A stretch of 32,000 nucleotides of DNA from Alphaproteobacteria bacterium (GTDB lineage: Bacteria > Pseudomonadota > Alphaproteobacteria > Rs-D84), in assembly GCA_017475605.1 (NCBI GenBank), contig JAFVFD010000002.1, forward strand, positions 60,001-92,000. The letters are read 5' to 3'. Positions 1 through 25,531 of this stretch are shown here, one piece after another. The notes under the pieces were generated by a model. The model saw nothing but the letters and a program-made list of their open reading frames with translations, made no database searches and was not told the DNA's origin. Within the stretch, counting starts at the first letter, position 1; each line of letters begins with the position of its first letter. Made by a program: the position numbers and the translations under genes.

Positions 1-1740
1 CGTGTTAATATATTGTTCGCACTGTAATACCCGACACCGGCCGCTGAACAATCGGTGCCTGTTGTGGTTGCCAACCAATGACCCGCATCACAGGATGTTA
101 TTACAAAGTCTTTACATCTGTCGGAATAGGCCAGGGCTGTTTCGTTGTAATAACATGTTTGTGTACCGCGTCCATGTGTTGCAACATATGTTGGCAACAA
201 TTCTTTATAACATGCCGCACTGCTTTCCGAATTGGCAGGCGATTTACCATCGTCCGGACAGGGTTCAATACCTGCCTGGCCAGAATTTGTAACGACGGTT
301 ACACCAGGGCAATAGTTGTTTGCCGTACATGGTAAACAGTCTGTTGTCGGATTTTCGCCGGCACCGCGATAATATTTACCCACTGGACATGTAATAGGTG
401 CATCGGTCCATTGTGCAGAAACCGTAGCATTGGATGTTGTAAATGTCAGTGCGGCCGTTGTTGTTACAAATTTGCCGTCCGCATCAACAACAGATACATT
501 ATTCCCTGTGTATCCAGCGAATGTCAACACACCCTTGACCGGTTTTGTGGTCAGTGTGGTAATTGCCGTTGTGGCGGCTGCATTTGAATACCAGCCGGTC
601 GCATACTTCAAATACACCTTGGCCGGTGAACCAGCGGTTGTCGCACCATTGTGATTCAATGTGATTTCATACACATTCGGTGTCCACTGGGCAAACAATT
701 CAATATCAGATGCATCAGACGATATATTTGTCGTAACCGTAGTACCCGCGTTATAGCATGTGCCACCACCATTCGCCGCGGTGCACCATTTGTTCGCGGT
801 GCTGTACCCGGTGCGTGTATCCACAATCGCCGGTAATGCGCATGCGCCACTGTCGAATGTGCACTTTACACTTGGTGCGGTTGAACCCGTACCACCATTT
901 TTGTTAAGGGTAATGGTGTATTCGTGTGCATCGCATGTTGGTGCGGCGGTGTTGTTGTTTTTGACATCATAACCGGTCTTGCACACTACATTGTATGAAC
1001 AAGCATTATATGTTGTCGCGCTGTTACCATACACGATATTTTCCGCGGCGGATACAGTCTTGGAATTTGCGAAATCCGCAGGTGTTTTATCGCATTCGGT
1101 ATAGCATGCGGTGTAACTTGCCGCGAATTCTGTTGAACCCGCCCAGCCCGCCGGACATTCCGTTTGGGTTGTTGCACCATCACCACTGTAATAACCGCTT
1201 GTTGTGCCGGAACACGCGAACGAACCGGCGACCCTGTAAAAGTATCCCGCGTTACAGGTCAAAGCATCGGCATCCATACAGTTATTATAATCACCACTAA
1301 CTTCTGTGCCGTTGTAATAGCATGTGGCGAAACCTGTACCATTTGCCCAATTGTGATTTGGATAGCCGGTTGTTGCGGTATATGGATTATATGTTACATA
1401 ACAAGTCTCAATACCACGATATTTTTGACCTTCAACCAGGGCGGCCTTGCCCGGGGTGCCATCTTTGTCGGTCGGACAGTCGTGGAATCCATCTGTATCG
1501 CACCACATATCTTCTGGGCAAACATTGGAACTATAGATACATTTGTTATAAGCATTTGTCGTTGTGTTATAGGAAACATGTTGGCTTACCACATTAACGG
1601 TAGTTCCGTTCAGATTCTTGGTTGCTTTACATGTCAAATAACAATCTGTAATCGCTTTACCATTTGTCGCACTGCCAGTATTTGGTGTGTTGCTGACCAC
1701 ATCGCCAGATGTATCTGTACCCGCGGGGCACACATTTAAT
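1..1740 (-). repeat. Third (partial) copy of the ~2.3-kb cassette, located in paralog 2 and continuing beyond the window
   Basis: 586..722 is 137/137 identical to 9255..9391 (offset 8669). 723..~1040 matches 11696..~12013 more closely (offset 10973). Encoded blocks such as AHEYTITLNKNGGTGSTAPSVKCTFDSG and LLPTYVATHGRGTQTCYYNE are shared. Confidence 0.85.
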
Positions 1741-4700
1741 TTAGTAGATGTGGTATCTGTTATATTTGTTTCGTTCCAATTAGTCGGGGCAGGACTCCAA
1801 TTGCCATCGCCAACCGCAACACAGTCCAGATTTTCATTTGTACTTGTTGCGCCGTCTAATTCATCATAGTATCCAGCATCACACTTGCGCATTGTATAAC
1901 TGTTGCCGCAATTGATTGAATAGGTGTTGTTAACAGTGCTCCAATGGCAACGTTTTGTGCGACCACCATGAGTTGTCTTTTCCCAAATGCCTTCGCGGAC
2001 ACAACCTTCTATCGAGCCACTTTCATCACCATCTGTGGATATCGTATTACGGGAATCATCAACATCGTACACAGCTTCTGGACAGCGTGTGCGTGCGGTA
2101 AAGTTGGTCGCACTGTAATATTGATAACCAACCAAAGAACAGTCAGTTGTTGTTTTGGTTGTATCCAACCACCAACCACTGTTACATGTCAATATTTCAA
2201 TTGTATTACAGTCGGAATTATACTTGCCCGCACTGTAATGGCAAACCTGCTTACCCTTACCATGATCTGCGCTGTATTGTACTGTGGCAAAGCAGTCTGA
2301 TTCTTCGTCTCTGCCATTGTCAGAACCAACACTTGGGGCAACATTGGAAAGCGCGGTGCCGTTCCAGGTTTGTGCCGGGGTATATGTTGTCCCCGCAACC
2401 GCAGTTGGACAGGCGTTTATAAAGTGATTCTGGCCATCGCGGTCTTCGTCGCTGTATGCGACACCACCCGGACACCATGACCCATTCGGACAAGACTTAC
2501 ATGCGTTGTCTGCATCATCAAAATATTGTCCCGCATTACATGTCTTGGTCTTTTTAGCAACCCAACTTGCTGTCAGGGTTGTTGTAGTTGTGGTATCGGT
2601 ATAATTTACCAGTTTATTGGTCGCCACGATTTGACCGGTGCCATTTATCACAGCAACCTGGGTTCCGCCAATCGTTGCATCATAGCCAGAACAATTCTGT
2701 GAGCCCTTGGTTGGCAGCACGATGCTTGTTATCGCGTTTGTCGCGGCGGCATTTGAATACCAGCCTTTGCCATATTTCATATAGATTGGACCATCTGTAC
2801 CACCGGTACCACCATCTTTTGCTAATATGAATGTATAGATGTTTGGTTCACATGTTGTACCAGATGTATGATAGCCGGCAACGCATACTGGGTTTTGCCA
2901 GGTGCATGTTCCAAATGTACCACTTGTTGTAACGGTTTTGTTCGTTGGGTTGTATGCCGTTATGGTCCCGGCAAAACTGACCGTTTCCGCAACCGGCGCA
3001 CGTGTACCAATTACTTCGCCATTGTCGGTAACATTCACCGATGAACAAGAGTTATAACATGCTGTCGGCAAAGCACTCTTTTCGCCTTCTGTTGTGGAAT
3101 TGATGTGTCCAGGCAAAGCACTACATGGATAGCGCGCCATACTTACAGCGTCTTCTGTGTTATTTGTCGGGGCGGGGCTCCAATTGCCTTTACCCGCTGG
3201 TTCACAGGTAGAAGAATCTTCTGCAACGCGATAATAACCACCACTGCAGTATTTAATTTTTATAGATTCACAGTTCTTATACCCGGCACTTGAATCATCA
3301 ACATAATTGCAAACCTGGTCGCCACCACCGGTTCCATTGGCCAAGGCCACACCTGTTCTTGTCGTTTTACATGCGGTAACAGCAGAACTGCCCGCCGGTG
3401 ATGTTACGGCCCCGCCAGATGTGTCTGTTGGGCAAGTCTTATGGCACCCGTCATCTGCCTTGTCTTTGTCTTCGTAGTCAACCTGGCCACCTGGGCAATA
3501 GAAGCCAGCAGGGCATTCTGCGTCAGAACCAGTTAACCCAGCGGTACATGTGAACAAGTTTGTTGACCAACGGGCATACAACGTGTCAAATACACCCGCG
3601 GTTGATGCGGTGCCGCCTTCGGCTGTGTCGGCAATACCAATGGTTGTTGCTACCGACAGATTACCAGAGGCATCGATTACTTGAACCCCACCTGTTTTTT
3701 CAGATACGGTATAGTAGCCCATAAATGTGTGATTTTCCCATGTCGGCGGTGTAATCTTGGTTACCGTTGTGCCAAAGTTAGTCAAAGACCACCCAATTGA
3801 ATATTTTTCATATATGGTCTTGTTTGTGCCCGGCGCACCGTTAAGGTCAAGTGTTATTGTGTACACCTTGGGATCACATGTACCCGCTGTTGCGTTTTTA
3901 TCATAATTGCCCATGCAGGTATATGTCATGGCACAACTTGACGGCATCGCGGTACATCCGCATAACACACCGTCTATATTATTACAAGTGCCATCGCAAT
4001 AATAGTCTGCACCACTTGTTTTTGCGTTTTCATTTTGGGTGCATGTCTTATTGTTGGCTGGGCATACTTGCGGTGTACAATACAAAGAGCATGTTGTATA
4101 GCATGTTCCACACGCACCACCTGTGTTGCCAAGTATCGACTGATTGTAGCCGGTTGTACTACAAGATTCGCATGTTCTTGTTTCTGTATTTTCGAAATAT
4201 CTGTTCTTACACCAAACTTGTTTAAGTTGGCATGCAGTATTGTTTACATTAGTACATGCAGAACTTCCATAATCTGAAATACCAGCAACCTTGTTTTCTG
4301 TATCATAAGAACAATTTGTTGAGTTTGTTGGGCATGTGCTTGGTTCAACACAAGTTGCGGTGTTACATGTTTTATAGCAGCCCGCAGATGTTGTCGATGC
4401 CGCATCAGACTTGGTATATTCCGATCCCAATGTTGTACAGGCAACAAAGCATCCCGCGCTACCTTCAATAGCAGTTCCGGTGCCCGGACAGTATTTACCG
4501 TCGGTTGGGCAATCTACGTGTTGTTCGCCATCGTAGTATTTACCAGCCTGACATTGAACGGTATTTTGAGACCAATGTGCATATAGTGTTGTATTGGTGG
4601 TCTTATCCCAAAGACGCAAAGAAACACCACTTGCGGAATAATATTGTGTTCCGCCTGTTTGTGCATCAAAATACCCGGCAAAAGACCATGTGGCGCGTGT

Positions 4701-6755
4701 CGGCAATTCAGAAGCAGACAAGGCCGGCAGATGCGCATCGTATGTCGCCGTAACTGATGATTTACAGCCCGTTCCACACGTGCCTTCATTTGCGTTCAGT
4801 GTAACTTGATATTCTAATGGTTCGCAATATGTGCCATCATCACTTACTTTATATCCTTCTGTACAAGAGAATGGTTCGTCATCGCCCGGACAGGTGGCAT
4901 GTGGAACGCATGCGTTACAACCGTTGCCGGACAGATAATAATTTTCAGCACACGCAGTTGCCGCGCAATTGTTTTCCCCATTTTTATGATAAATGCCAGA
5001 TACCGTCTTTGAACCCGCAACATCGGATACCTTACATTCACGATAACAATAATTCGAATCGGTTGTTCCCTGGACTGAATAAGGGAATGTCGAATTAGAT
5101 GCCGAACATAATGTACAATTTGTCGCGGTCGTAGATGCAAAGTAATTAGCGGCAGCCACAACCGGCGCAACAACCGTTTTGTTACATGTGTTTGTGTTTG
5201 TTTCACAGCCGCTCTTTATGGTGCCATCGGCGGTACCTGTCGCGTTCGAATATGCGACATAATCGCATGTCGCCGGTGTACAATCTTGGAATGTGGCAGA
5301 AACGCAACCGTTTGGTAATGTTTCAATATGTGCGCCACTTGATGTACGCTGTTTGGTCTCGCTGAAACATTGGGTGATGGCGGTCGATGTCGTGCTTTCT
5401 GTGTGTGGGTATGCCGTAGGGCATGTTTCGCATGCCGCATTCGCCTTGGCGGATGATGCCTTGTACTTGTTGTATCCGCATGCAGTCCACACCGCATAAA
5501 CCGTTTTGTCAGTTGTTATTGTTATTGTATACGAACCAGTCGTCGCAGATGCAGATGTTGCCCAGCCACCAAATACATAGCCCGCACGATAGAACGAGTT
5601 TGTATCACCACTGGCCAGTGTACATTCAACCCCGGATGCACATTGTTTGTTTGCTGGTTTTGTCCCATCACCACCATTCAGGTTATATGTTACAGTGAAC
5701 GTATCTTGGGAATAATTGCCGGTAAATGTAACTGTGCCGGAATACACCCCAAGGTTTTCATAGGTACACGCAATACCGGTTTGTCCACTGCCGAATGATT
5801 TAGTAACCAAAGTACTTGGAACCCATGATCCAAATGACCAATTGTCAACAGTTGGTGCGGTTGCCGCATTAAATGTTTCGCCATATGTACATGACGCAGG
5901 GGTTGTTGGTGCAGTACCTTTTGTTGGTGCCCAAACAAAGTTAATCGTGTTTGGTGTCGCGGTACATGTATATGATGTCGCACCTGCGGTTGAATTGGTT
6001 TGTGTGGTATTTGTGGTATAGCCTTGGTCGGCTTCTACACTATACACACACTTGTTGTCGTTTGAAGTTGTGGATGCGGTACAGGTCTTTACCCCCGTAC
6101 CCTTGGTGGCAAGACACGCACTACATGCATACGGTGCAGACCCTGTGCGAACATATTTTGAACTACATGTTTTAATCGTACAAAGGTTAGTTATAATATT
6201 GTTGTTCCAGGCCGTTGTTTCCCAGTTTGCGACATTAGACGCATTGGCGCAGTTTGCATCGCAACTGGTCTTGCCGGTACCACTGGTGGTTTTGCCTGCG
6301 GCACACGCGGTACAGGATGTGTTGCCGGTACCGGTATTGTATGAACCTGTGGCACACGCAATACACGCACTTTCGGCACTGCTGCCGGTGCTGGCATTGT
6401 ATGTTCCGGCGGAACATGCTGTGCGACCACCAACATCATCATAATGTACAGTAACTCCGCCCGGACAATATCCGCCGGCGGTACAGGTCGTTTCGCCCGC
6501 ACCAGCGGTTGCTACATACTTACCGGCCGTTGTTGTTAAATAACAGTTGTTTATGCCACCTGTGGTATTATCAGATGCACTGTTTGGATAGTTTGTTGGG
6601 CATTTTGCGCACTGACTGGACCCATCAAGGTAATAACCGGCATTACAGCTGATGTATGTTTTTTCGCATGAATAGCCCTCGGCAAAAGAATTCGCCGAAA
6701 ATGCGAACAGAAACAAACCAACGAAAAACCCGAGAAAACAGCGCTTTCTTCCCAT
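1..6755 (-). CDS. Giant secreted cysteine-rich repeat protein, paralog 2. This is the 5' part only: the ORF runs off the window at position 1, with at least 2251 codons in the window.
   Basis: ATG at 6755-6753 follows a GAGAGGAAG RBS. My hand translation of this minus frame (coordinate mod 3 = 2) met no stop down to position 3. The ORF track has no minus-strand entry in that frame anywhere in 1..6755, as expected if the tracker needs a stop codon. The N-terminus MGRKRCFLGFFVGLFLFAFSANSFA-EGYSCEKTY is nearly identical to that of the 4430-aa neighbour. Region 1..1740 is near-identical to repeats inside the neighbour. Confidence 0.85.
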   Translation of the reverse strand, partial: MGRKRCFLGFFVGLFLFAFSANSFAEGYSCEKTYISCNAGYYLDGSSQCAKCPTNYPNSASDNTTGGINNCYLTTTAGKYVATAGAGETTCTAGGYCPGGVTVHYDDVGGRTACSAGTYNASTGSSAESACIACATGSYNTGTGNTSCTACAAGKTTSGTGKTSCDANCANASNVANWETTAWNNNIITNLCTIKTCSSKYVRTGSAPYACSACLATKGTGVKTCTASTTSNDNKCVYSVEADQGYTTNTTQTNSTAGATSYTCTATPNTINFVWAPTKGTAPTTPASCTYGETFNAATAPTVDNWSFGSWVPSTLVTKSFGSGQTGIACTYENLGVYSGTVTFTGNYSQDTFTVTYNLNGGDGTKPANKQCASGVECTLASGDTNSFYRAGYVFGGWATSASATTGSYTITITTDKTVYAVWTACGYNKYKASSAKANAACETCPTAYPHTESTTSTAITQCFSETKQRTSSGAHIETLPNGCVSATFQDCTPATCDYVAYSNATGTADGTIKSGCETNTNTCNKTVVAPVVAAANYFASTTATNCTLCSASNSTFPYSVQGTTDSNYCYRECKVSDVAGSKTVSGIYHKNGENNCAATACAENYYLSGNGCNACVPHATCPGDDEPFSCTEGYKVSDDGTYCEPLEYQVTLNANEGTCGTGCKSSVTATYDAHLPALSASELPTRATWSFAGYFDAQTGGTQYYSASGVSLRLWDKTTNTTLYAHWSQNTVQCQAGKYYDGEQHVDCPTDGKYCPGTGTAIEGSAGCFVACTTLGSEYTKSDAASTTSAGCYKTCNTATCVEPSTCPTNSTNCSYDTENKVAGISDYGSSACTNVNNTACQLKQVWCKNRYFENTETRTCESCSTTGYNQSILGNTGGACGTCYTTCSLYCTPQVCPANNKTCTQNENAKTSGADYYCDGTCNNIDGVLCGCTAMPSSCAMTYTCMGNYDKNATAGTCDPKVYTITLDLNGAPGTNKTIYEKYSIGWSLTNFGTTVTKITPPTWENHTFMGYYTVSEKTGGVQVIDASGNLSVATTIGIADTAEGGTASTAGVFDTLYARWSTNLFTCTAGLTGSDAECPAGFYCPGGQVDYEDKDKADDGCHKTCPTDTSGGAVTSPAGSSAVTACKTTRTGVALANGTGGGDQVCNYVDDSSAGYKNCESIKIKYCSGGYYRVAEDSSTCEPAGKGNWSPAPTNNTEDAVSMARYPCSALPGHINSTTEGEKSALPTACYNSCSSVNVTDNGEVIGTRAPVAETVSFAGTITAYNPTNKTVTTSGTFGTCTWQNPVCVAGYHTSGTTCEPNIYTFILAKDGGTGGTDGPIYMKYGKGWYSNAAATNAITSIVLPTKGSQNCSGYDATIGGTQVAVINGTGQIVATNKLVNYTDTTTTTTLTASWVAKKTKTCNAGQYFDDADNACKSCPNGSWCPGGVAYSDEDRDGQNHFINACPTAVAGTTYTPAQTWNGTALSNVAPSVGSDNGRDEESDCFATVQYSADHGKGKQVCHYSAGKYNSDCNTIEILTCNSGWWLDTTKTTTDCSLVGYQYYSATNFTARTRCPEAVYDVDDSRNTISTDGDESGSIEGCVREGIWEKTTHGGRTKRCHWSTVNNTYSINCGNSYTMRKCDAGYYDELDGATSTNENLDCVAVGDGNWSPAPTNWNETNITDTTSTKLNVCPAGTDTSGDVVSNTPNTGSATNGKAITDCYLTCKATKNLNGTTVNVVSQHVSYNTTTNAYNKCIYSSNVCPEDMWCDTDGFHDCPTDKDGTPGKAALVEGQKYRGIETCYVTYNPYTATTGYPNHNWANGTGFATCYYNGTEVSGDYNNCMDADALTCNAGYFYRVAGSFACSGTTSGYYSGDGATTQTECPAGWAGSTEFAASYTACYTECDKTPADFANSKTVSAAENIVYGNSATTYNACSYNVVCKTGYDVKNNNTAAPTCDAHEYTITLNKNGGTGSTAPSVKCTFDSGACALPAIVDTRTGYSTANKWCTAANGGGTCYNAGTTVTTNISSDASDIELFAQWTPNVYEITLNHNGATTAGSPAKVYLKYATGWYSNAAATTAITTLTTKPVKGVLTFAGYTGNNVSVVDADGKFVTTTAALTFTTSNATVSAQWTDAPITCPVGKYYRGAGENPTTDCLPCTANNYCPGVTVVTNSGQAGIEPCPDDGKSPANSESSAACYKELLPTYVATHGRGTQTCYYNETALAYSDRCKDFVITSCDAGHWLATTTGTDCSAAGVGYYSANNILT
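6681..6755 (-). other. Sec (SPase I type) signal peptide coding region of paralog 2
   Basis: MGRKRCFLGFFVGLFLFAFSANSFA has a basic n-region (KRK-like), a hydrophobic core and an A-x-A-like SFA cleavage motif. There is no lipobox Cys. Confidence 0.75.
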
Positions 6756-6777
6756 AACTTCCTCTCTTTTATATTTC

Positions 6778-6807
6778 ATGGTAGAAAAAATATATGGGGT
6801 AGTGCAA
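6778..6807 (-). promoter_or_regulatory. Putative sigma70-like promoter of paralog 2 (TTGCAC, 18 nt spacer, TACCAT), inside an upstream block duplicated before both giant genes
   Basis: Minus-strand reading: ttcTTGCACtaccccatatattttttcTACCATgaaatataaaagagaggaagttATG. The same hexamers and spacing occur upstream of the other giant gene. The hexamers are only moderate matches to consensus. Confidence 0.3.
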
Positions 6808-6842
6808 GAATAAAATTAACAAAATATAAAGATTAACAATAC

Positions 6843-6863
6843 TCCCCGCGGTAAAGGCGGGGA
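6843..6863 (-). terminator. Possible intrinsic terminator hairpin between the two giant genes
   Basis: tccccgc / ggtaaag loop / gcgggga is a 7-bp GC-rich stem that ends 9 nt downstream of the 6872 stop. On the minus strand it is followed by T-rich sequence (gtattgttaatctttatatttt) but not a clean T-run. Confidence 0.4.
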
Positions 6864-6871
6864 ATATTTTA

Positions 6872-8100
6872 TTACCACGATATATATCCTGGATTACATG
6901 TCCGTTCACACTTTTTGGTGGCATTGTTCCACCGCAGCGAACCTGTTTCGTCTGAATATGGTTTGGCACAAATTGGGACACATTCATTATTTTCCAAATT
7001 GTACTTTTCGCCTTGATACAGACATGATGCTATTTCGCAACCGGTGCTGTAACTGGCCGCGGCAACTTCGCCCAGAACACTGAACTTGTTGCGGCATGCG
7101 CTGCACTGTTCGGATGCGTTGTTCTTTTCATACGGGTCGTTCGTATAGCCCGGCACGCACGATGTCGCGACGCATTCGTTCCATGAATTTGTTGTGGCAT
7201 TCCATGTCTTTGTACCAACACCATGTTCAATGTCGCATGCTTGTTCGTTTTCAACACATGCGTTTGACGCCAGGTGGAACCCATCTTCACACGATTTTAT
7301 CGTACAGATGCCGAATGCGCCATGGGTCGCATCCCATTTCTGAGTCGCCGCGGTTGCGTGTGGTGCGGCGCAGCCTTTGACATCTTGTTCACAAGTGTTG
7401 TTGTATGGGTGATATCCGATTGTACAACTTTCAATCACGCAATTTCCGTCTGATTTATAGGACAGGGCATTTTCACGATTACATGGCTTACACGACCCAT
7501 TAATCATTTCATAATGGCTGTTACATGATGTTTCAACGCAACGTCCGTCAACAACTTCCGCTGGGTTACCGGTTGCAGATGCACCAGTGTACTGACAATT
7601 GTTCGGCCAATAAGCAGTATTTTCAACCGGTGTTAATGTACATGTGTCTTCAATATATTCTGTACACATACGGTAACAATCGCTTGCCTTATTAGCACCT
7701 GGGGCTGAATACATCCAACTGCCATCACCCAGGTCCGCGCAAGATTTTGCGCCGTTGCCACCATCGCCACCCGGTGTTCCATCACAGAAACTGCCCGCGG
7801 GACAGGTTACACATTGACCGTTGGATAAACTGTAACCCGGTGCGCACGATGCAATTTGGCATGTGTCCGCGGCGGTATAGAAATCGCGTCCAGACATGGT
7901 GTTTGCGTTTTCGCCCATTGTACAGTCGCGATAGCAATATGCGGCATCAGTTGTTCCGGCATCTGATTTTGTAAATTGTCCACCGGTTAGACTATCACAC
8001 GTTGCCACCTCTAATCCTGGTTCACATACACTGTTTTCTGGGCAAATAAAGCATGCGCGTTCATTTTCACTGGTTTGTGTGCGTGTTGTAGAACCCGCCG
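6872..8100 (-). other. C-terminal EGF-like / VSP-like cysteine-rich region of the 4430-aa protein
   Basis: Repeated pattern C-x2-G-[YF]-x-[LMP]-x2-[NG]-x-C-[VKE]-x-C, for example CAPGYSLSNGQCVTCPAGSFC, CNSHYEMINGSCKPC, CEDGFHLASNACVENEQAC and CVPGYTNDP. The protein ends ...CERTCNPGYISW. Confidence 0.6.
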
Positions 8101-11100
8101 GACACGCATACCGCGCCAAATCGCGATCTGGACTGTAATACGCATAGTCCGCCACAGAACATTCTGTATCTGTTCCGTTCGCCAACCAATAACCGCCGTT
8201 ACAATATGTCATTGTCGGAACACCGCAACCGGCCAGATAGGCATTATCCGCAACACTCCACTTACATGTGCGTTCACCACCACCATGTTCCGCAACATAC
8301 GGCTGACCGTTCTTCCAGCATTCAGATATCGTACTTGTGTTATTGTATGATGTCTTACCTTCGTTCGGACACGCATGACGTTCAAGTTCGTCTTCAATGC
8401 TGTAATAGTTGAAGTCTACGACAGTACACGCGATATCTGTTTGTGCCGCTAAATAATACCCACCACGACACTTCGTAATAACCTTGTCAAAGCATTCGTG
8501 TTTATAGACGGCATCGTTTCCGGTACCACTTGAATACCAGCAACTTTGTGTCCCGGTACCCGAAGAATCTGTTGCGGTATAATCAAGGTTTGTCTTAAAG
8601 CATTCGTCAACGGTTTCCGCGGTTGTGTTATCAGACTTTGTTGTACCGCCATTCGGGCACGCATCACGTGTTAATATGTTATTCGCGCTGTAATACCCGA
8701 CACCGGCCTCCGAACAATCGGTGTCTGTTGTGGTTGCCAACCAATGACCCGCATCACAGGATGTTATTACAAAGTCTTTACATCTGTCGGAATAGGTCAG
8801 GGCATTTTCATTGTAATAGCATGTTTGTGTACCACGACCATGTGTCGCAACATATGTTGGCAACAATTCTTGGAAACACATTGTCGCACTTGCGGTACCA
8901 ACCAAAGACTTACCGTTGTCTGGGCATTCATCGATACCTGCCTGACCAGAGTTAGTCATTACGGTTACACCAGAACAATAGTTGTTTTCCGTACATGGCA
9001 GGCAGTCCGTTTCGGGCATTTCACCGGTGCCACGATAATATTTACCCGCCGGACATGTAATAGGCGCATCGGACCATTGTGCCGTCAATGTGGCATCGGC
9101 CGTCGTAAATGTTAATATCGCGGATGTTGTGGCGAATTTACCATCAGAATCGATTACAAAAACATTGCTTGTATTCTTGTATCCGTCAAATTTTAATACA
9201 CCCTTGACCGGTTTTGTGGCAAGTGCTGTAATTGCCGTTGTGGCGGCTGCATTAGAATACCAGCCGGTCGCATACTTCAAATACACCTTGGCCGGTGAAC
9301 CAGCGGTTGTCGCACCATTGTGATTCAATGTGATTTCATACACATTCGGTGTCCACTGGGCAAACAATTCAATATCAGATGCATCAGACGAAATATTCGT
9401 CGTAACCGTAGTACCCGCGTTATAACATGTACCACCACCATTCGCCGCGGTGCACCATTTGTTCGCGGTGCTGTACCCGGTGCGTGTATCAACAATCGCA
9501 GGTAATGCGCATGCGCCACTGTCGAATGTACATTTTACACTTGATGCGGTTGAACCCGTACCACCATTTTTGTTAAGGGTAATGGTGTATTCATGTGCAT
9601 CGCATGTTGGTGCGGCGGTGTTGTTGTTTTTGACATCATAACCGGTCTTGCACACAACATTGTACGAACATGCGTTATATGTTGTTGCACTGTTACCATA
9701 TACGATGTTTTCTGCGGCGGATACAGTCTTGGAATTCGCGAAATCCGCGGTTGTTTTGTCGCATTCGGTATAGCATGCGGTGTAACTGCCGGCGTTAGCC
9801 GTTGAACCAGCGCAACCGGCCGGACAGGCAATTTGATAAGTAGAAGAGCCTGCCTGCGCGACGGTCGGTTTGGTTTCGCCCGCAAAATAGGATTGTTCAG
9901 GGCTGTAATAACAAGTATCAACAGACGAACATTCCATGCCGGTCTTGTAGTAATAACCAGCATCGCACGTCAATGCGCCCATATCTGTATAATTAGAGTA
10001 TGTATTGGTTGATTTTTTATAGAATGCCTTTACCCAACCTGTACCCTTGGTCCACAAATTGTTATCTATAGATTTGAACGGATTGTACAGAATGTAACAT
10101 GTATCAATATCGCGATACTTCATGTTGTCAACCAAGACAGCCTTGCCGGTTGTGCCATATTCGTCGACTGGACAATCATGGAATCCATTTGTGTCGCACC
10201 ACATATCTTCTGGGCATGTATCTGAATCATACATACATGTGTTATATGCGGACTTGCTAGTGTTGTAAGAAACATATTCATTAACAACTTCGGCTATTGT
10301 TCCATTAAGATTCTTGGTTGGGTTACATTTCAACCGACAGTCTGTGATAAATTCTGCTGTTTCCGTTGGTGTACCGGGGTTAGTGCTTGTTACATCTGTC
10401 GCGCCTGTGCCGGCTGGACATGCGTAACGAACAAGTGCAGCATCTGGACTGTAATATGCATTACCCGCCACAGAACATTCTATATCGGTCGCATTTGCCA
10501 ACCAATAACCAGCATCGCAGTATAACATGGTTGGTGTTCCGCACCCGGCCAGGTACGCATTATCTGCAACACTCCATTTGCATGTGCGTTCGCCACCACC
10601 ATGTTCCGCAACATATGGTTGACCGTTCTTCCAGCACTCTGATATTGTACTGGTGTTGTCGTACGTGGTTTTACCTTCGTTCGGACACACGTGGCGTTCC
10701 AGTTCGTCTTCCGCACTGTAATAATTATAGTCGGCCACAGAACAAGTCTTGTCGGAAGCATTTTTCAAATAATATCCGCCACGACATTTTGTAATGACTT
10801 CATCAAAGCAATTGCGTCCATAAACCGCATTATTCCCGGTACCACTTGAATACCAGCAACTTTGTGTCCCAGTACCCGACCCATTAGATGCCGCGTAATC
10901 CAGATTTATCTTGAAACATTCCTGGACTGTTTCCGCGGTTGTATTATCAGACTTTGTTGTACCGCCATTCGGGCACGCATCACGTGTTAATATATTGTTC
11001 GCACTGTAATACCCGACACCCACCGCCGAACAATCTGTATCGTTTGTATTTTTCAGATAATAACCTGCATCGCAAGATGTCATAACAAAATCTTTACAGT

Positions 11101-14100
11101 TCGCAGAATAGGTCAGGGCATTTTCATTGTAATAACATGTTTGTGTACCGCGTCCATGTGTCGCAACATAGGTTGGCAACAGTTCCTTGTAACATGCGGC
11201 ACTGCTTTCCGAATTGGCCGGCGATTTTCCACCGTCCGGACATGCGTTTAATCCACGTACACCGTCATCGGTCGCAAACGAGCCGCCCGGGCAATAATGG
11301 TTTTCGGTACATGGCAAGCATGTTGAACCAGAACCACTGTAATATGTTTTTGCCGCGCATGTTGTGTTCCCGGCCGGCCATTTTGCCGTAATTTCCGTAT
11401 TTGTTGATGTAAATGTCAGTGCCACCGCAGATGTGCTAAACTTGCCATTTGTGCCAATGATTTCGTTGTCGTTCGTATCATAATAGCCCGCAAATTCATA
11501 ACCTGTTTTCTGGGGTTTGGTGACAAGTGTGGTAATCGCCGTTGTGGCGGTCGCGTTTGAATACCAGCCGGTCGCATACTTCAAATACACCTTGGCCGGT
11601 GAACCAGCGGTTGTCGCACCGTTGTGATTCAATGTGATTTCATACACATTTGGTGTCCATTGGGCAAACAATTCTATATTTGATGCATCAGACGATATAT
11701 TTGTCGTAACCGTAGTACCCGCATTATAGCATGTGCCACCACCATTCGCCGCGGTGCACCATTTGTTCGCGGTGCTGTACCCGGTGCGTGTATCAACAAT
11801 CGCCGGTAATGCGCACACACCACTGTCAAATGTACACTTTACACTTGGTGCGGTTGAACCCGTACCACCATTTTTGTTAAGGGTAATGGTGTATTCATGT
11901 GCATCGCATGTTGGTGCGGCGGTGTTGTTGTTTTTGACATCATAACCGGTTTTGCACACAACATTATATGAACAAGCATTATATGTTGTCGCGCTGTTAC
12001 CATACACAAAGTTTTCCGCGGCGGATACAGTCTTGGAATTGCTGATGCTTGCGGGGGTCTTGTTACATTCGGTATAGCATGCGGTGTAACTGCCGGCGAA
12101 TTCTGTTGAACCCGCCCAGCCGGCCGGACACTCTGTCTGGGCTGTTGCACCGTTTCCGCTGTAATAACCGGTTTCTGTGCCGGAACACGCGAACGAACCA
12201 GCAATTTTATAATAGTATCCAGCATTACATGTTTTTGCATCAACATCCATACAGTTAGAATAATCGTTTGTTGAATTGGTATAGAAACACTTTGCCCAAC
12301 CAGTACCATTTTCCCAATTGTGATTTGGATAGCCGGTTGTTGCGGTATATGGATCATATTTTACATAACATGTATCAATACCACGATATTTTTGACCTTC
12401 AACCAATGTTGCTTTACCTGGTGTGCCATCTTTGTCGGTCGGACAGTCGTGGAATCCATCTGTGTCGCACCACATATCTTCTGGGCAAACATTGGAATCA
12501 TAAACACAAGTGTTATATTTATTCGTACCATAAGACACAGTCGGTGTTTTTACTTCGACGGTTGTACCATTCAGATTCTTGGTTGGATTACATGTCAAAT
12601 AGCAGTCCGAAATAGAACCAGATGTTGTGGTCGCTGTGTCTGGGGTTGTGCTTACCACATCAACCGCGCCTGTGCCAACCGGACAATCATAACGTTGTGT
12701 CGAAGAGCCCGGGTTTTGCATGCTTGGTTGTAATTCTTCGCCCGAGAATGCTGACTGTGCAGGGCTGTAACGTCCTTTGCCAACAGGTACACAATCGCGG
12801 TCGCCATCAGAATTAGTATACGAACCATCGTCATAATAACCCGCATCACAAGTTACAATCACAGATACATTACAGTTGTATGAATACCCGGTTGATATAT
12901 TCGTGTCAGATTCATCAGATTTGTGATAGCAATTACGTCTGTGGCCACTGTGTCCGCCCGTTGGTTCATACCAGATATTACCACGATAACATTGTGATAC
13001 CTTTTCAGAAACATCGGTTTCGGTTGTAATAGTTGGGTCTTGGTCTGTATTTGGACACTTTGTCCTTGTTGTAACAAGATTCGGACTGTAATACTGATAA
13101 CCAACATTAGAACAGTCTTTTGTCGTTTTTGTTGTATCCAACCAGTGTCCAATTGTACAGGTCAAAATCTGTTCGTCTTTACAATTATCAACATACTTGT
13201 TCGTTGCGGTATTGAAATAGCATGTTTGGCTTCCTGCGCCCTGGGTTGCGGAATATTTCACATTTGATGCAAAACAGTCTGACTTTTTGGTCGAACCCTT
13301 GGCCGACGAAACCGATACCGTCAATGTTTGGTTGTTGGCATTGGTCGCGGCGGTATATGTGCTGGCGTCTGCCGGGCATGTGTCAAGTCCGGACACACTG
13401 CCGTTGTCCTGGTATGGTGTCGTGCCGGTACAATATGACCCAGCGGGACATTCAGTACATGTTGTGCCATACCCTGTGTAATATGTTCCCGCGGCGCAAT
13501 TTACGATTGGTATTTCGTCCCAATTTGCAGTGATAAGGGTTGGTGCCGTAAATACAGTATAGTTGGTCGTTAATTTACCTGTCCCATCAATTATTTGTTG
13601 GCCGGCCGCAAAATACCCACCGAATGTATTTCCAATGGATACAGGTTTTGTAACACTTGTAATAGGTCCAGAAACCGCCTTGGTTGTGGAATTATAATTT
13701 GAATACCAGCCTGTATTATATTTCAAATAAATATCGTATGTAGCGGTATTGCCATTAACACTGCCACCGTTATGATTTAATGTTATCTTGTATACATTTG
13801 GTTCGCAGGTTTCGCCAGATGGTATATATCCAGTATCGCAATCTGGGGTTTTATAAGTACAGGCCGGTATCGTTGTTCCGTTAAAGGAAACTGTATCTGA
13901 TGTTGGAACACGTGAACCATGGTCAATATTTATCGTTGAACACGTATTATAGCAATCACTTGCGGAATCGCTGTCTGAATCTGTTGTTGTAACCGTTGAA
14001 TTCGCGCCACTCAGATTGCTACATAAAAATCTATCTGTATCGCCCGCTGGACTGTATGCGCCCTTGCCAACGACAGCACATGTTGTTGATGCGGTTGATA

Positions 14101-17100
14101 CACGATAGTGTCCGCCAACACAACTTGTAATCTTGATTGTACAATCTTTATCATAAGATGTTCCACCAAAGAAGCAGGTTTGATCGCCCGCGCCGGTTAC
14201 AGGTGTTTCGTCCAATTCAACATTTGCGCGTGTTGTTTGGCATTGATTGATGCGTGTACTACCGGTGTCGGCTGTGGCGACATCGCCGTTTTTAATGTCG
14301 GTTGGACACTTGCGGGCGCACCCGATTTCTTCATCATCTTTGTCTAATTCTGAAACGATTTCACCCGGACAATAATAGCCAATCGGACAGGCGGTTGTTT
14401 TGTCTGATTTTTTGCCGGCTTCGCATTGGAATGGTGTTGCATCACCACAGTTTGGACTTGTTTTGTTTGCAACACCGGCGGAACCGCTGAATGTGCCACT
14501 GGCATTGCCGGCATTATTATATCCGTATTCGCATGTATAGGTATACTTGCAAACATTGTTTGATACACCGGTTACAGTACATGAATCGACTTTATCGCCA
14601 GGTGTACATGTGCAGCCCGCAAATTGAGCATACCATTTGGTTGTGTTGTTTGCGACGACCTTGGCGGCGGTAATACCATCACTTGTTATATAACCACTGG
14701 CATCAATATATTTGGTTCCGTTGCTTGATGCGCTGAAATAACCCAAGAATACGGCATTGGTTTTTGTTGGTATGGTAACGTTGTTTGCGCTTGCTGTCAT
14801 CGCCTTGGAACGCGCACTGTCTTTGTAAACATTAGTGGCATAAGTGGTGTAAATCGTGCCGGAACCGTTCGCGCCACCGTTGGTGCTGTCGTCCAGGCTG
14901 ATACTGTAATTGTTTGGGGTCCATGTTGCCGTAAGTGTTATCGTTGCACCCGCAACCGTTGTCGCGGTGCTGATTGACGCATCGGCGGCATATGTTGGGC
15001 TTGTGCAATTACCAGTGCTGGCGGAACATGCCCAACCCGCAAACGAATAACCCGTTCTAGTATAGGTGTTTGCTGGGGCCTTGCATGTGCCATTATATGT
15101 ACACGATGTTGGACTTGTTGGTGCGTTGCCAAAACCGCCTGTACCGGCATTATATGCAACATTAAATGTGTTCGCGGTCCAAGTTGCCGTCAAAGTGATT
15201 GTTGCGCCCGCCACAGTTGTGGCCGTATTGATTGCTGCACCCGCGGCATATGTTGCACTTGCGCAACTGCCACTGCTGGCGGAACATGCCCATCCGGCAA
15301 ATGTATATCCTGGTTTAGTATATGTGTTCGATGGGGCCTTGCAGTTGGTGTCATCATATGCGCACCATGTTGGACTTGATGGGGCGGTGCCAGATGCACC
15401 AGTTCCCGCATTATAGGAAACATTAAATGTGTTTGCGGTCCAGGTGGCTGTAAATGTTACAGTACCCTTGTTATAGTGCAGGTTTTTGAATTTGGTTGCC
15501 TTGACACCAGCAAGCGATGTGTCCGTTGTTGAATTATCACCGTAATAGTGGGCAACCTTGTTATCCATGCCGGCGATGTTCCAACCAGTAAATGTATAGC
15601 CTGTTTTGGTCGGATTGCTTATAGTTATTTCTGTGTCGAATGTTGCACTTGTTGGGTGCGATGCGCCGTGTGTCCCGCCGTTAAGTGTATATGATATGGT
15701 ATAAGAAGTGGCCTTGCATGTTTCGCCGTTTGCTTCATATCCATTGACACATGTCGTTGTATACGTACAGGCAGGTATGGTTGTCCCATTATAAGAAGAC
15801 TTGTCTGATGTTGGAACGCGCGAACCATGGTCTATATTTATCGTTGAACATGTATTATAACAATCTGTTGCAGAATCACTGTCTACATCTGTTGTTGTAA
15901 CCGTTGAATTTGCGCCACTCAGGTTGCTGCATAAAAATCTATCTGTGTCGCCTGCTGGACTGTATGCGCCTTTGCCAACAACGGCACATGTTGTTGACGA
16001 TTCCGACACCAAATAATGTCCACCAATACAACTTTTAATCTTGATGGTGCAATCTTTGTTATAAGATGTTCCACCAAAGAAGCAGGTTTGATCGCCGGCA
16101 CCGGTTACAGGGGTTTCGTCCAAATCAACATTTTCGCGGGTGGTATAGCATAATGTGTTGGTTTGGGTGCCTTTCCCTGTGGTTGTAACAGAGCCGTTTT
16201 GTGTATCGTCTGGACATTTTGTCTGTTTCGTTGCGGCGGTTGTATCAACATAATATCCGGTATCTGCAATTGTACAAGATGTGTTGCCTGCGGTTGCTTT
16301 GTAATAACCCTTGGTACATGCAGTACAGGACGAATACGATGTGCCACTGTAACCCGCCGCACATACACAGTCGTCTATGGATGCAGGTGTTGCTGTGATT
16401 GTTGTAGTATTGGCGGGGCAGTTATACACATTGTCGTCGCCATCTGGACTGTATGTGCCGGGTTCAACATTGGCACAAGACCCATTTGCTGCCTTGTAAT
16501 ACCCGGCATTACAGGTCCATGTTGCCGTAAGTGTATTATCGCCCTGGGTCGTATATTTATATGTTGTGTTGGCATTTGGATAACTGCCACTGGCGGCACT
16601 CCAACCGGCAAAAGTTGCGTTTGCCTTGGTAAATGTATTCGCCGCCTTGGTTGTAAAGTTTGCGTTATATGTAACAGATTGTGTTTGGTCGGTCCCAGAA
16701 CCACCAATGCCCGCTTTATATGTGATGGTATAGCCGGAATATGTTTTCGGTGAACACAAATTACTTACAGTATTTGTTGATGCGTTCCAGGTTGGTGTGT
16801 TCCATGTCGCAACAGTTGTACCAAACCCATCGCAATTGTTTGAACATGTCGTGTTAGCGGTGCCGGTATTTGTTTTACCACCATCACATGCCGTACATGA
16901 TGTTGCACCGGCCGCACTAAACGAACCATTCGCGCACGCAGTACACGCGTTCCCATTCTTATAATACCCGCCGGAACACTGCCATTCACAAGCATTTGAT
17001 GATGCCGCGCCGGTATAAGATGAATTTGATGCGGGCTTGTTGGTACATGCACTACAATCAATGCTGGCTGCGGTTGTTTTTGTGTTGTGTGATTCGTGGT

Positions 17101-20100
17101 AATAGCCCGTATTACATACATGGGTATATTTACATTGGTTACTTTCCACCGCATTGAATGTTGCAGAGGCGACATTGGTTCCCTTTGATGCCGTCGCGCA
17201 CGCAGTCCATTTTGCATATATTGTGGTTGGGGCATTACTTAAATCTGCACCAAATGCGTAATTTGTTCCACTGGTACCATTCGCGTTGCTGTACCAACTG
17301 GCAAGGTAATTACTGTCTTTTGTGATATTACAAGAAGTGCTGTTCCAACTTGGTGCGGTACATGTCCCGCCGTATGTACATGTTATACTGCCCGCATTTG
17401 TGCCACTTGCACCGGCGCACGTACCTGTTCCGGTGTTTTTGTTGATGGTTATGGTTTTATTGTTCACCTTGACAGAATATGTTGCACTTGCGGCGGCATA
17501 GTCGCCCTTGGCGGCACTGGTAACCGTTATGGTTGCAGTTCCAGCCTTTTTAAAGGTAAGATTTACCGTCGTTCCACTTATTGTGGCGGTTACCACAGAT
17601 TCATCAGAAGATGTCGCACTTAATGTGCCACCACTGGTATTGGTTGTAACCGTAAACGAACCAGCGGTCGTTGGGTATGTTACTTCTGTGCCATTACCAC
17701 TTAATACAACCTGATTCATCGTGCAAAGATAACTGCCGGTTTTGGTATTAAAGTTATTGCCAGTTACCTTGTAATATATTGTCTGGCTGCCGCCGGTGGT
17801 AAGGGTCGGGGCCGTACCATATGTGCCGTTTTCGGTTGTGCTGTATGTAATGGTCGCGCCACTGGTTGGGGCGGAAACGGTTACGTTTGCACAACTCTGC
17901 GCATTGCCGTTATACGACAGTTTCTTGGTAGACGCATTTACTGTCATATTTTTGGCATTCATTGTACATTTATATGTACCCGTCAGCGTGTTATAATTAG
18001 TTTTTTCCAGTTTATAACATACGGTTATTTCATCGGCATTGGTAATTGTCGGTGCCGATGTGCCGTATGATCCACATGAACCGCCCGTCTGGGTGGCGAA
18101 TGTTAATGCCGCATCACTTGGTACTATGTTGGAAACATTGGCGCAACTTTGTGCCGTTCCGTTTGATGTGGTTGTGCCGTTATATGTCAATGTCTTGTCG
18201 GACACATTCGCTGTTATAGTGGCATTGGTGATTTCACATTCAAAACTGCCGGTCTTGGCGGTATAATTTGCCGCGGTTACCTGGTAATATATTGTTTTGC
18301 TGTCTGCGACATTGGTAACGGTTGGGGCATCATTTAAATTATATGTTCCGCTGCTTGTGCCGTATTTAACGGTTGCGCCACTGGATGGTGTTGTAACCGT
18401 AATGTTACAGGTAAGGGCAGTGCCATCATATACCTTGCTCTTTTTACCAGCATTTACCGCGATAGTTCCCGCTTCGGCAACTGTACAGGCAAACTCACCT
18501 GTTTTGTCGGTATAATTTGTCGCAGATATTTTATAGCACACCGTTGTTGTGCCGGCATTTGTGCGGCTTGGAATGGTGCTGCTGAATGAACCACATGTGC
18601 TGCCGGATTTCGTTGCGTATGTTACGGTTGCGTTGCTTGGCACTTTGTTTGTTATGTTACCATCACAAGACAGTGGGTCGCCGTCAAATGTTTTACTGTT
18701 TCCTTCAACATTGGCGGTAATTGTGCCCTTGACGGTTTTTACAGTATATGTAGCAGTCGCAGCATTATATTTATCAGATTGTTCACTTGTTACAGTAATT
18801 ACCGTAGCATCGGCGGCATCTACATATGTAACTGTACCCTGGGTCTTAGCAGAGTTTAATACAACTGTTGCTTTGCTGGTCGCGGCACTGGTTGCTGTTA
18901 TTGTGCCATCACAAGAGCCTTTGTTTATTGTAAATGTGCTTGTCGTTGTCGGATAGGTAATAGTTCCACTGGTCGGTGTAACACTAATGCTGCATGTCCC
19001 GCGATTAACTGTTAAATCATATGTCGCGGAACACGCGTTATAATTTGCGGTGGCATCACTGGTTACAGTTATAGTTGCAGTCCCATATTTTACCGGGGTA
19101 ACGGTTACGGTGCCATTTGTTATGGTTGCTGTTGCGACAGATGTTGTCCCAGACGAAACCGATAATGCGCCGCCGCTGTTTGTACTGGCCGTAAATGTTC
19201 CGGTGTTTGGATATGTGATTGTGCCACTGTCCGCACCCAAAGATACAGAACAATTTGCCTTGGCCATGGTACAGGTATAACTACCAGATGCTTCGGCATA
19301 GTTCGGGGCTGTTACCTTATAATATACAGTTTTGGGCGATTCACTAACATTTGTCATTGTTGGCGCGGTCGCGTTGTATGTGCCGTTTTCGGTTGTGCTG
19401 TATGTAATGGTCGCGCCACTGGTTGGATTGGAAACGGTTACATTGGCACAACTTTGTGCATTACCGTTATATGTTAATGACTTGGTTGATGCACTGGCTA
19501 CGATATTTGGGATACAAACATAAGAACTGGTTGCTCCGGTGGAACCACTGCGCGTGTATCCAGTGGCACATGCGGTAATTGAACAAAGGTTCGATACACT
19601 GTTTGTGTTTGCAGACCAACTGGCATTTGCCCACCCGGAAACATTAGACGCATTGGGGCAGTTTGCATCACAACTTGTTTTGCCAGTACCACTGGTGGTT
19701 TTGCCGTTTGTACACGCGGTACATGATGTGTTGCCGGTACCGGTATTGTATGAACCCGTGAAACACTCAACACACGCACCAGAGATAACGCTTCCTGTGG
19801 TGTTATTAAATGTGCCAGCGGGGCACTCTGTGCGACCACCAACGCCATCATAATATACTGTAACTAGGCCCGGGCAATATCCGCCGGCGGCACAGGTTGT
19901 TTCGCCCGCACCAGCGGTTGCTACATACTTACCGTACGTTGTTGTTAAATAACAGTTGTTTATACCACCTGTGGTATTACCGGATGCGCTGTTTGGATAG
20001 TTTGTTGGACATTTTACGCACTGGCTGGACCCGTCAAGGTAATAACCGGCATTACAACTGGTGTATGTTTTTTCGCATGAATAGCCCGCGGCAAAAGAAT

Positions 20101-25142: not shown

Positions 25143-25531
25143 CTTATACGCCCACTGAATAATTTATAATACAACATTGGAACGCCACCATAATGACGTT
25201 CAATTACATTGTTTGGTACGGTATCTACTGTGTTATTTTTTCTGTTCAAAATAACGCATTCATACTGTGCACCGTCCAAGATTTCCGGTACATTTGGTAT
25301 ATATTCTTTGCTGCATAATATGCGCAGACCATGTGATTGTGCCTGGATAACAATGCGGGTAAAACCATCGCGTTTCGCCGGCATAGGACATGCCGTAATA
25401 TCAAAACTTGTTATTTTGTTATACACATCCTTATAGCAACCGATTGCGCGTGCTGTTTCGGCATCGGTTACTGTTTTTACCAATTTACCTTCGGTATAAA
25501 ACTCGACTTCTCGGGTTGCTTGTCTGCTCAT
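25139..25531 (-). CDS. 130-aa protein with by-eye similarity to a shortened, degenerate Lon (S16) protease domain
   Basis: ATGA overlaps occur at both ends: with the lon-like stop at 25528-25531 and with the tsaB start at 25139-25142. Local matches to E. coli Lon P-domain motifs: VEFYTEGKLVKTVT vs IETACVPGKGKLTYT; PAKRDGFTRIV vs TPKDGPSAGIA (Thr at the catalytic Ser position); CSKEY vs GGLKEK; VPNNVIERH vs IPDNVIADL. Confidence 0.6.
   Translation of the reverse strand: MSRQATREVEFYTEGKLVKTVTDAETARAIGCYKDVYNKITSFDITACPMPAKRDGFTRIVIQAQSHGLRILCSKEYIPNVPEILDGAQYECVILNRKNNTVDTVPNNVIERHYGGVPMLYYKLFSGRIR

Follow-up and report, generated by a model that had tools for sequence, protein, structure and literature searches.

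Two adjacent giant genes of an uncultured gut bacterium share a C-terminal module, and one copy of this module is a mosaic of the other two. The DNA analysed here (the window) is a stretch of 32,000 nt from contig JAFVFD010000002.1 (positions 60,001 to 92,000). Its host is a Candidatus Enterousia-like gut alphaproteobacterium of the order Rs-D84, which is known only as a metagenome-assembled genome (MAG). The minus strand of the window carries two adjacent giant open reading frames (ORFs) in the same orientation, gene 1 and gene 2. Both end with the module of about 2.3 kb and a common tail. Gene 1 contains two tandem copies (C, then B) with a period of 2316 nt, and gene 2 contains one (A). Copy A is composed of patches: the upstream third is like C, the downstream part and tail are like B, and small patches of the opposite affinity lie inside. 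In addition, the core of A, B, and C was homogenised, although its silent sites are free to change. Judged from the sequences, this pattern was probably generated by ectopic gene conversion or unequal recombination among the paralogous modules of the two putative surface-protein genes. The phenomenon is of a known type and represents a new example in an uncultured lineage.

The recombination tests were carried out with our own permutation analogues (Sawyer-type, 3SEQ-like, and pairwise homoplasy index (PHI)-like). The three-way alignment of the module copies comprises 2166 columns with 645 polymorphic sites. Copy A agrees with B against C at 249 sites and with C against B at 240 sites, and B and C agree against A at just 108 sites. 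When the affinity of A to B or C is read as a string along the alignment, 132 runs are observed against 245 expected (p <= 1e-4). The Sawyer-type tests of the longest fragment gave p <= 1e-4 for both A-B and A-C, as did the 3SEQ-like test with A as the mosaic. The signal was retained without positions 586..977 (p = 2e-4) and likewise from third codon positions alone. Unbroken runs of 16–26 informative sites switch affinity along module A (Table 1), and additional affinity patches were found past the left window edge. The overall nucleotide identity is 85.6% between A and B over the module and tail, as far as both stop codons, and 81.6% between A and C over the module. Module A extends about 540 nt past the left edge, and module plus tail about 1.8 kb, as read from a second assembly of the same strain (L002). 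B and C, which are neighbours in one gene, show little sign of mutual exchange. Another donor for the divergent patch of B at 8875..8912 was sought in the window, and none was found.

The proportion of differing silent sites (pS) supports the same picture. Between the copies it ranges about twenty-fold along the module, from 0.04 to 0.95, with 0.04–0.2 in the core (about 582..1000) versus 0.5–0.95 in the flanks. The stretch that is near-identical in A, B, and C measures about 450–500 nt, roughly 586..1060. Core pS is 0.16–0.24 among the three copies versus 0.72–0.75 to the nearest relative, L004. Since the silent sites of the core are saturated against L004, the low pS reflects homogenisation and not constraint at the nucleotide level. 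The proportion of differing replacement sites (pN) is about 0 in the core and up to 0.3–0.4 in the flanks, which have diverged at silent and replacement sites alike. The copies differ mostly by substitutions at third codon positions, chiefly transitions (17–19 of 18–20 differences in the core).

L004 was also added as a fourth taxon, because four sequences are the minimum for a PHI test proper. The PHI-like permutation test with four taxa gave p <= 0.001. With L004 as the outgroup, 30 sites in A 1100..1399 join A with C and B with the outgroup, versus 3 that join A with B and C with the outgroup. In A 0..599 the second grouping holds 65 sites versus 13 for the first. The protein windows agree with this change. 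Upstream, B groups with the homologues P0004, P0003, and P0005 and has in common with them a 15-residue insertion that is absent from A and C. Downstream, it is C that stands apart. Several windows show A or B to be as near to P0004, a protein of another species, as A is to B. In other windows, A and B are 97–100% identical, yet they are just 33–50% identical to P0004.

The genes of relatives hold one or two cores each. In a sister lineage represented by L025, L026, and L042, orthologous cores are 86–99% identical in amino acid sequence and the paralogous cores within a genome are 62–68% identical. By this comparison the homogenisation is lineage-specific, and the two cores of one gene in the sister lineage have been independent since before those species split.

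A sequence-only reading of the window had located a sharp switch between two donor cassettes at 586..1040. The tract 586..722 is identical to copy B at 9255..9391 over 137 of 137 positions, as that reading had claimed, and is the longest exact A-B match of the locus. Copy C differs from it, at six sites and not five (648, 678, 687, 702, 707, and 708), and its right register is 11559..11695 in place of 11560..11695. The C-like variants quoted beyond the tract are present at 723, 729, 756, 762, 1002, 1005, 1017, 1020, and 1032. However, the claim that 723..1040 has the variants of C and not those of B is not correct. Here A agrees with C against B at 13 sites, agrees with B against C at 9 (750, 843, 844, 846, 855, 978, 993, 1035, and 1037), and stands alone at 5, and the identity of A is 95.6% with C and 94.3% with B. 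The abrupt, clean flip from B to C at 722 does not hold as stated either. The pattern beyond it is finely mixed, and a local breakpoint search gave p = 0.10. The downstream part, 1..585, is mostly closer to B as proposed, with the exception of 206..243, where A follows C at 21 consecutive informative sites.

The local statistics are modest. Over 586..1040 the runs test gave p = 0.017, and the Fisher test at the pre-chosen breakpoint 722 gave p = 0.018. The probability of a 137-nt identical run at the local A-B divergence is 0.008–0.035, without correction for which pair and region were chosen. With three sequences any site pattern fits private mutations on a star tree, and therefore only clustering is informative. 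The alternation beyond 722 is equally well explained by independent mutations of B and C since the last homogenisation. The 137-nt tract may be the latest small conversion and is not significant by itself. The permutation analogues of the breakpoint tests suggested by the sequence-only reading are positive for the whole alignment (p <= 1e-4), and the breakpoint search within 586..1040 is not significant. Its broader proposal that the cassettes form a recombination or gene-conversion mosaic holds, on the basis of the clustering, the variation of pS, the saturation of the core against a relative, and the change of four-taxon topology.

The pattern was probably produced by repeated homologous, presumably RecA-dependent, exchange between the directly oriented modules, which are spaced by 2.3, 8.7, and 11 kb. 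The long high-identity core would be the preferred exchange site. One older event, an unequal crossover or a long conversion, would have fused, within the core, a left half of C type and a right half of B type. Subsequent homogenisation of the core in A, B, and C limits the placement of this main C/B junction of copy A to about 600..1100. Later, non-reciprocal conversions over tens to hundreds of nucleotides would have homogenised the core and a few other segments. Meanwhile, the flanks would have diverged at silent and replacement sites. Unequal crossovers of a like kind would add or remove modules.

Several points weigh against this explanation. The direction and the non-reciprocity of the exchange are not demonstrable from three sequences. 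Rate heterogeneity or diversifying selection on the flanks could exaggerate the contrasts, though neither would produce topology switches. The maximum chi-square test with breakpoint search over 586..1040 does not go below the p = 0.10 given above. All of the data come from metagenome assemblies of short reads, in which the 137-nt tract can be phased only by 141-mers that span 139 nt, at the very limit of resolution. Finally, no second strain was found that could show an alternative mosaic.

Three assemblies of the locus from the same strain were compared, namely the window, L002, and L003. L002 is a MEGAHIT k141 contig of 696 kb. It differs from the window by two bases in 16.7 kb and agrees with it at every repeat site. 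L003 (ENA ERZ28654170, record XIEF21-1_SAMN15829995 scaffold_93) is identical to the window over 16.5 kb outside the giant genes, and therefore both are from the same strain. It differs at 27 bases. Of these, 25 fall in the cores of A, B, and C (register 586..977), and the other two are at 4274 and 8709. In L003 the three copies are identical over 392–401 nt. At sites 648–762 it has the A haplotype of the window (11/11) and at sites 822–924 the C haplotype (10/10). A block of its gene 2 tail carries the gene 1 allele at 29 of 29 differing sites. Each substituted block is flanked by variant-free gaps of at least 54 nt. Such a block pattern is presumably what bubble (bulge) removal in a de Bruijn graph at k of about 55 and subsequent repeat traversal yield. 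Because the differences are whole haplotypes and not a site-wise consensus, they point to collapse by bubble-popping. Therefore, the identity of the three copies in L003 is probably bubble collapse and not biology. The protein predicted from L003, P0122, differs from those of the other assemblies at 11 residues because of the replaced haplotypes. The window corresponds to the NCBI protein P0121, as we infer from the difference at residue 828, which is the single-nucleotide polymorphism (SNP) at 4274. The study indicated by the L003 record name used 150-nt reads with MEGAHIT and IDBA-UD (PMC8199421), and we infer that the window derives from it as well. The longest exact matches between copies in the window are 137, 102, and 71 nt. 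All of them are shorter than k = 141 and the 150-nt reads, and thus the phasing is resolvable in principle, barely so for the 137-nt tract.

Isolated SNPs between the assemblies were observed at window position 8709 and at L002 17013 (window -257), both in paralogous positions. At each, one allele is that of the other copies (codons GAG/GCG and ATC/AAC). Possible causes are micro-conversion, polymorphism in the population, and assembler noise.

Three other explanations have to be considered. The identity tract and its switch might be chimeric assembler paths through three near-identical copies, so that no such mosaic exists in the genome. The sequence-only reading had itself named this as a possible refutation. 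L003 does depart from the window almost only in this zone, since the differences are confined to the core of A, B, and C except for 4274 and 8709, and at 8709 the alternative allele is the one found in the paralogous copies. Furthermore, the longest tract of 137 nt is just below the largest k-mer of MEGAHIT, 141, and 150-nt reads lie behind all assemblies. However, the switch sites 708 and 723 are only 15 nt apart and are linked by single reads. L003 itself shows the A haplotype across 648–762 with the switch included, and hence the switch was also obtained as a single path by another assembler. The phasing of L002 is the same as that of the window, and no exact match between copies reaches 141 nt, hence the graph at k = 141 is unambiguous. 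The large-scale mosaic in divergent sequence is identical in the three assemblies and significant without the core, and the pattern of the differences points to collapse in L003. An artefact is therefore improbable, and the window sequence is probably assembled correctly. The possibility that no recombination took place, with independent divergence after duplication and blocks caused by regional constraint and chance clustering, is remoter still and can hardly be maintained. Every site fits a star tree when only three sequences are available, the pattern at 586..1040 is just marginally non-random, and the domain encoded by the core is the most conserved one of the protein family, with 80–90% amino acid identity to P0004. 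On the other hand, constraint and chance do not account for the twenty-fold variation of pS with a core saturated against the orthologue, for uninterrupted runs of 16–26 sites that alternate in affinity, or for four-taxon splits that change from one grouping of A to the other.

A third explanation is programmed segmental conversion at high frequency, which would vary an exposed adhesin, with the modules of gene 1 and gene 2 as mutual donors and population heterogeneity behind the differences between assemblies. Giant secreted proteins of surface type in a host-associated bacterium with a reduced genome would suit it. The assembly differences all lie in paralogous repeats, the SNPs at 8709 and L002 17013 toggle to the paralogous allele, and flank pN reaches 0.3–0.4. 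In contrast, promoterless silent cassettes are absent. Each of the two genes is intact, with a signal peptide, a ribosome-binding site, and a 5' region bounded by a terminator, and B and C sit in frame within gene 1 and are not separate silent donors. The exchanged core is the conserved part (pN about 0), and the variable flanks are the least exchanged. A core pS of 0.16–0.24 indicates that the copies were last generally homogenised long ago. Between assemblies, whole haplotypes are substituted, as expected from bubble-popping. Neither a G-quadruplex motif nor an E. coli-type Chi site occurs anywhere in the window, which leaves room for elements of other types. Programmed conversion is thus unlikely. 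The likeness to antigenic-variation loci drawn by the sequence-only reading is not supported: the silent cassettes are missing, each intact gene has its own 5' region, and no alternative mosaic was demonstrated among the three assemblies compared. A related and more speculative model is a two-expression-site system of adhesin variation in a host-dependent gut alphaproteobacterium whose genome is below 1 Mb, in which the Flg_new core would serve as a recombination portal to reshuffle the divergent flanks of A, B, and C at appreciable frequency. The disagreement of the assemblies and the toggling SNPs would then be real recombinants within the population. We consider this unlikely. A diversity-generating retroelement was rejected, because the scanned neighbouring ORFs contain no reverse-transcriptase domain and the differences are ordinary third-position substitutions, chiefly transitions.

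Ectopic exchange among paralogous modules has counterparts in known systems. In Helicobacter pylori, babA/babB and sabA/sabB are separately expressed full-length adhesin paralogues whose 5' and 3' ends are conserved and whose middle diverges, and RecA-type conversion between them creates chimeric genes. The present locus seems to resemble them in the exchange of segments between full-length paralogues. Unlike the H. pylori pairs, the genes here are adjacent and 8.6–13.3 kb long, and the exchanged unit is an internal module present twice in tandem in one gene. The comparison does not imply ongoing switching. Tandem modules of large bacterial surface proteins undergo concerted evolution, as in the Rib/alpha-C and Bap/Esp-type repeats. 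The likeness lies in the in-frame modules homogenised by recombination and in the variable module number (here one or two cores per gene). In contrast to those repeats, homogenisation here is partial and patchy, covers only a core of about 0.4–0.5 kb in a 2.3-kb unit, and involves a second gene, and the duplicated modules of the sister lineage (L025, L026, and L042) do not homogenise at all. Cassette-based antigenic variation is represented by Borrelia vlsE/vls, Neisseria pilE/pilS, Anaplasma msp2, Treponema tprK, and Mycoplasma genitalium mgpB/MgPar. These systems have one expression site and silent partial donors, and their variable regions are bounded by conserved recombination sites. Mosaic tracts copied between homologous segments of surface-protein genes are the common feature, but the window lacks the architecture of an expression site with silent donors. 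Finally, both giant proteins match PF09479 (Flg_new) like the InlB B-repeat proteins (PF09479, TIGR02543), and the homogenised core encodes these repeats. Unlike in those proteins, the repeats are part of a Cys-rich architecture that is very large and specific to Rs-D84/Enterousia-like MAGs.

If the mosaic is real, as is likely, recombination between internal modules remodels giant surface-protein genes of about 22 kb in these uncultured bacteria with reduced genomes, roughly 2–3% of a genome of about 0.9 Mb. This would hint at pressure on the giant proteins at an interface with a host or partner. The fine structure of such repeats also depends on the assembler, as one public assembly of the same strain silently swaps three distinct copies for one haplotype. 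Therefore, claims of conversion tracts in MAGs need validation at the read level or with long reads.

Table 1. Features of the locus. Coordinates are window positions unless a contig is named.
Feature	Coordinates	Strand	Remarks
C-like upstream part of module A	1126..1527	minus	A=C runs; B groups with outgroups, 15-residue insertion; A with C and B with outgroup 30 sites versus A with B and C with outgroup 3
B-like downstream part of module A	266..550	minus	A=B runs; split of A with B and C with outgroup dominant
C-like patch in B-like half	206..243	minus	21 consecutive informative A=C sites; B the outlier
B-like patch	54..123	minus	23 consecutive informative A=B sites; A-B pS about 0.13
137-nt A=B tract	586..722	minus	flanked by A/B differences at 585 and 723
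Core of copy A	586..977	minus	low divergence; one InlB-B/Flg_new repeat and start of a second; assemblies of the same strain differ here
Core of copy B, gene 1	9255..9646	minus	register of 586..977
Core of copy C, gene 1	11559..11950	minus	register of 586..977
Module A of gene 2, in-window part	1..1652	minus	blastn of window against itself and extension with L002
Module B, last tandem unit of gene 1	8126..10429	minus	blastn of window against itself
Module C, additional upstream tandem unit of gene 1	10442..12694	minus	blastn of window against itself
Gene 1 C-terminal tail	6872..8125	minus	paralogous to gene 2 tail, which lies outside the window
Gene 1	6872..20164	minus	4430 amino acids, signal peptide, Cys-rich, Flg_new repeats
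Gene 2	1..6755	minus	2851 amino acids in full, 2251 inside the window; runs off left edge
Gene 2 5' end, ribosome-binding site and about 64 nt upstream	6232..6819	minus	87.6% identical to 19641..20228
Gene 1 5' end and upstream region	19641..20228	minus	counterpart of 6232..6819
Terminator-like hairpin	6838..6868	minus	between gene 1 stop and gene 2 start
Identical 392-nt cores in L003	L003 4779..5170, 7083..7474, 15779..16170		window equivalents 586..977, 9255..9646, 11559..11950
Gene 2 tail segment with gene 1 haplotype in L003	L003 18104..18435		
Two-core genes without concerted evolution	L025 13634..16069; L026 13703..16138; L042 5954..8401		

The two giant genes are adjacent and measure 13.3 kb (gene 1) and 8.6 kb (gene 2). 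The full product of gene 2 was recovered as P0001, P0121, and P0122, and its NCBI product name is InlB B-repeat-containing protein. The 4430-residue product of gene 1 is a called gene on two contigs, yet it is absent among the homologue matches. Exact look-ups of this product and of the NCBI copy of gene 2 returned no record. An identical Sec-type signal peptide, read by eye, opens both proteins. The first 175 or so codons and the 5' leader of gene 2 are common to gene 1, with 87.6% identity over about 590 nt including about 64 nt before the ATG. A terminator-like hairpin precedes each giant gene. The hairpin between the two genes suggests that gene 2 is a separate transcription unit. Flg_new (PF09479; Listeria-Bacteroides or InlB-B repeat) is the sole Pfam family above threshold in both proteins, with scores of 69.8 and 68.6 bits (gathering cut-off 27). 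TIGR02543 scores 21.2 bits in gene 2, just above its cut-off of 20.95, and 19.8 bits in gene 1, just below it. A search of PDB sequences with module A found no solved relative. Further internal repeats were observed in gene 1: 13805..14243 and 15716..16151 are 84% identical and 1.9 kb apart, and 14911..15457 consists of tandem units of about 260 nt with 78% identity.

The conserved C-terminal block of the protein family comprises about 1150 amino acids and ends in GY[IT][SM]W. The C-termini, including those of gene 1 (end at window 6872..6900) and gene 2, form a strongly conserved Cys-rich tail with an invariant last tryptophan. This residue suggests a sorting or anchoring signal of some type. 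Many gut MAGs with the label Candidatus Enterousia, Alphaproteobacteria, or Rickettsiales encode relatives of the giant protein. Genomes of this group are smaller than about 1 Mb (PMC12306168). JGI metagenome contigs contained no match to a 41-mer taken from the invariant part of the core, and thus no additional strain was found. When a core-centred query of 301 residues was searched against proteins, it returned only three distant matches and missed gene 2 itself, presumably because Flg_new words saturated the candidate list.

The neighbouring genes have housekeeping functions (RpoD, CysS, TrcR, a Lon-like ATPase, a TsaB-like protein, and two tRNAs). Directly upstream of gene 1 lie tRNA-Met (20275..20351, minus strand) and a PIF1/RecD-like helicase gene (20400..21689, plus strand), and nothing was found that ties this helicase to the recombination of the modules. 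The Lon-like protein (25528..27285, minus strand; 585 amino acids) has substrate-binding, AAA+, and lid domains and no Pfam match for a C-terminal protease domain, and an ORF of 130 amino acids without a Pfam match overlaps the end of its gene. The ORFs 1164..1739 (plus strand, 191 amino acids) and 11839..12357 (minus strand, 172 amino acids) are antisense to or out of frame in the giant genes. Most likely they are spurious and arise from the repetitive, biased coding sequence. In another Alphaproteobacteria MAG, L060, three family tails stand in tandem. Its positions 1..326 and 10917..11242 form a 326-nt tract of 99.4% identity between paralogues that are otherwise 69–75% identical, exactly at the contig end. 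This tract is possibly a similar paralogue exchange at which the assembly broke.

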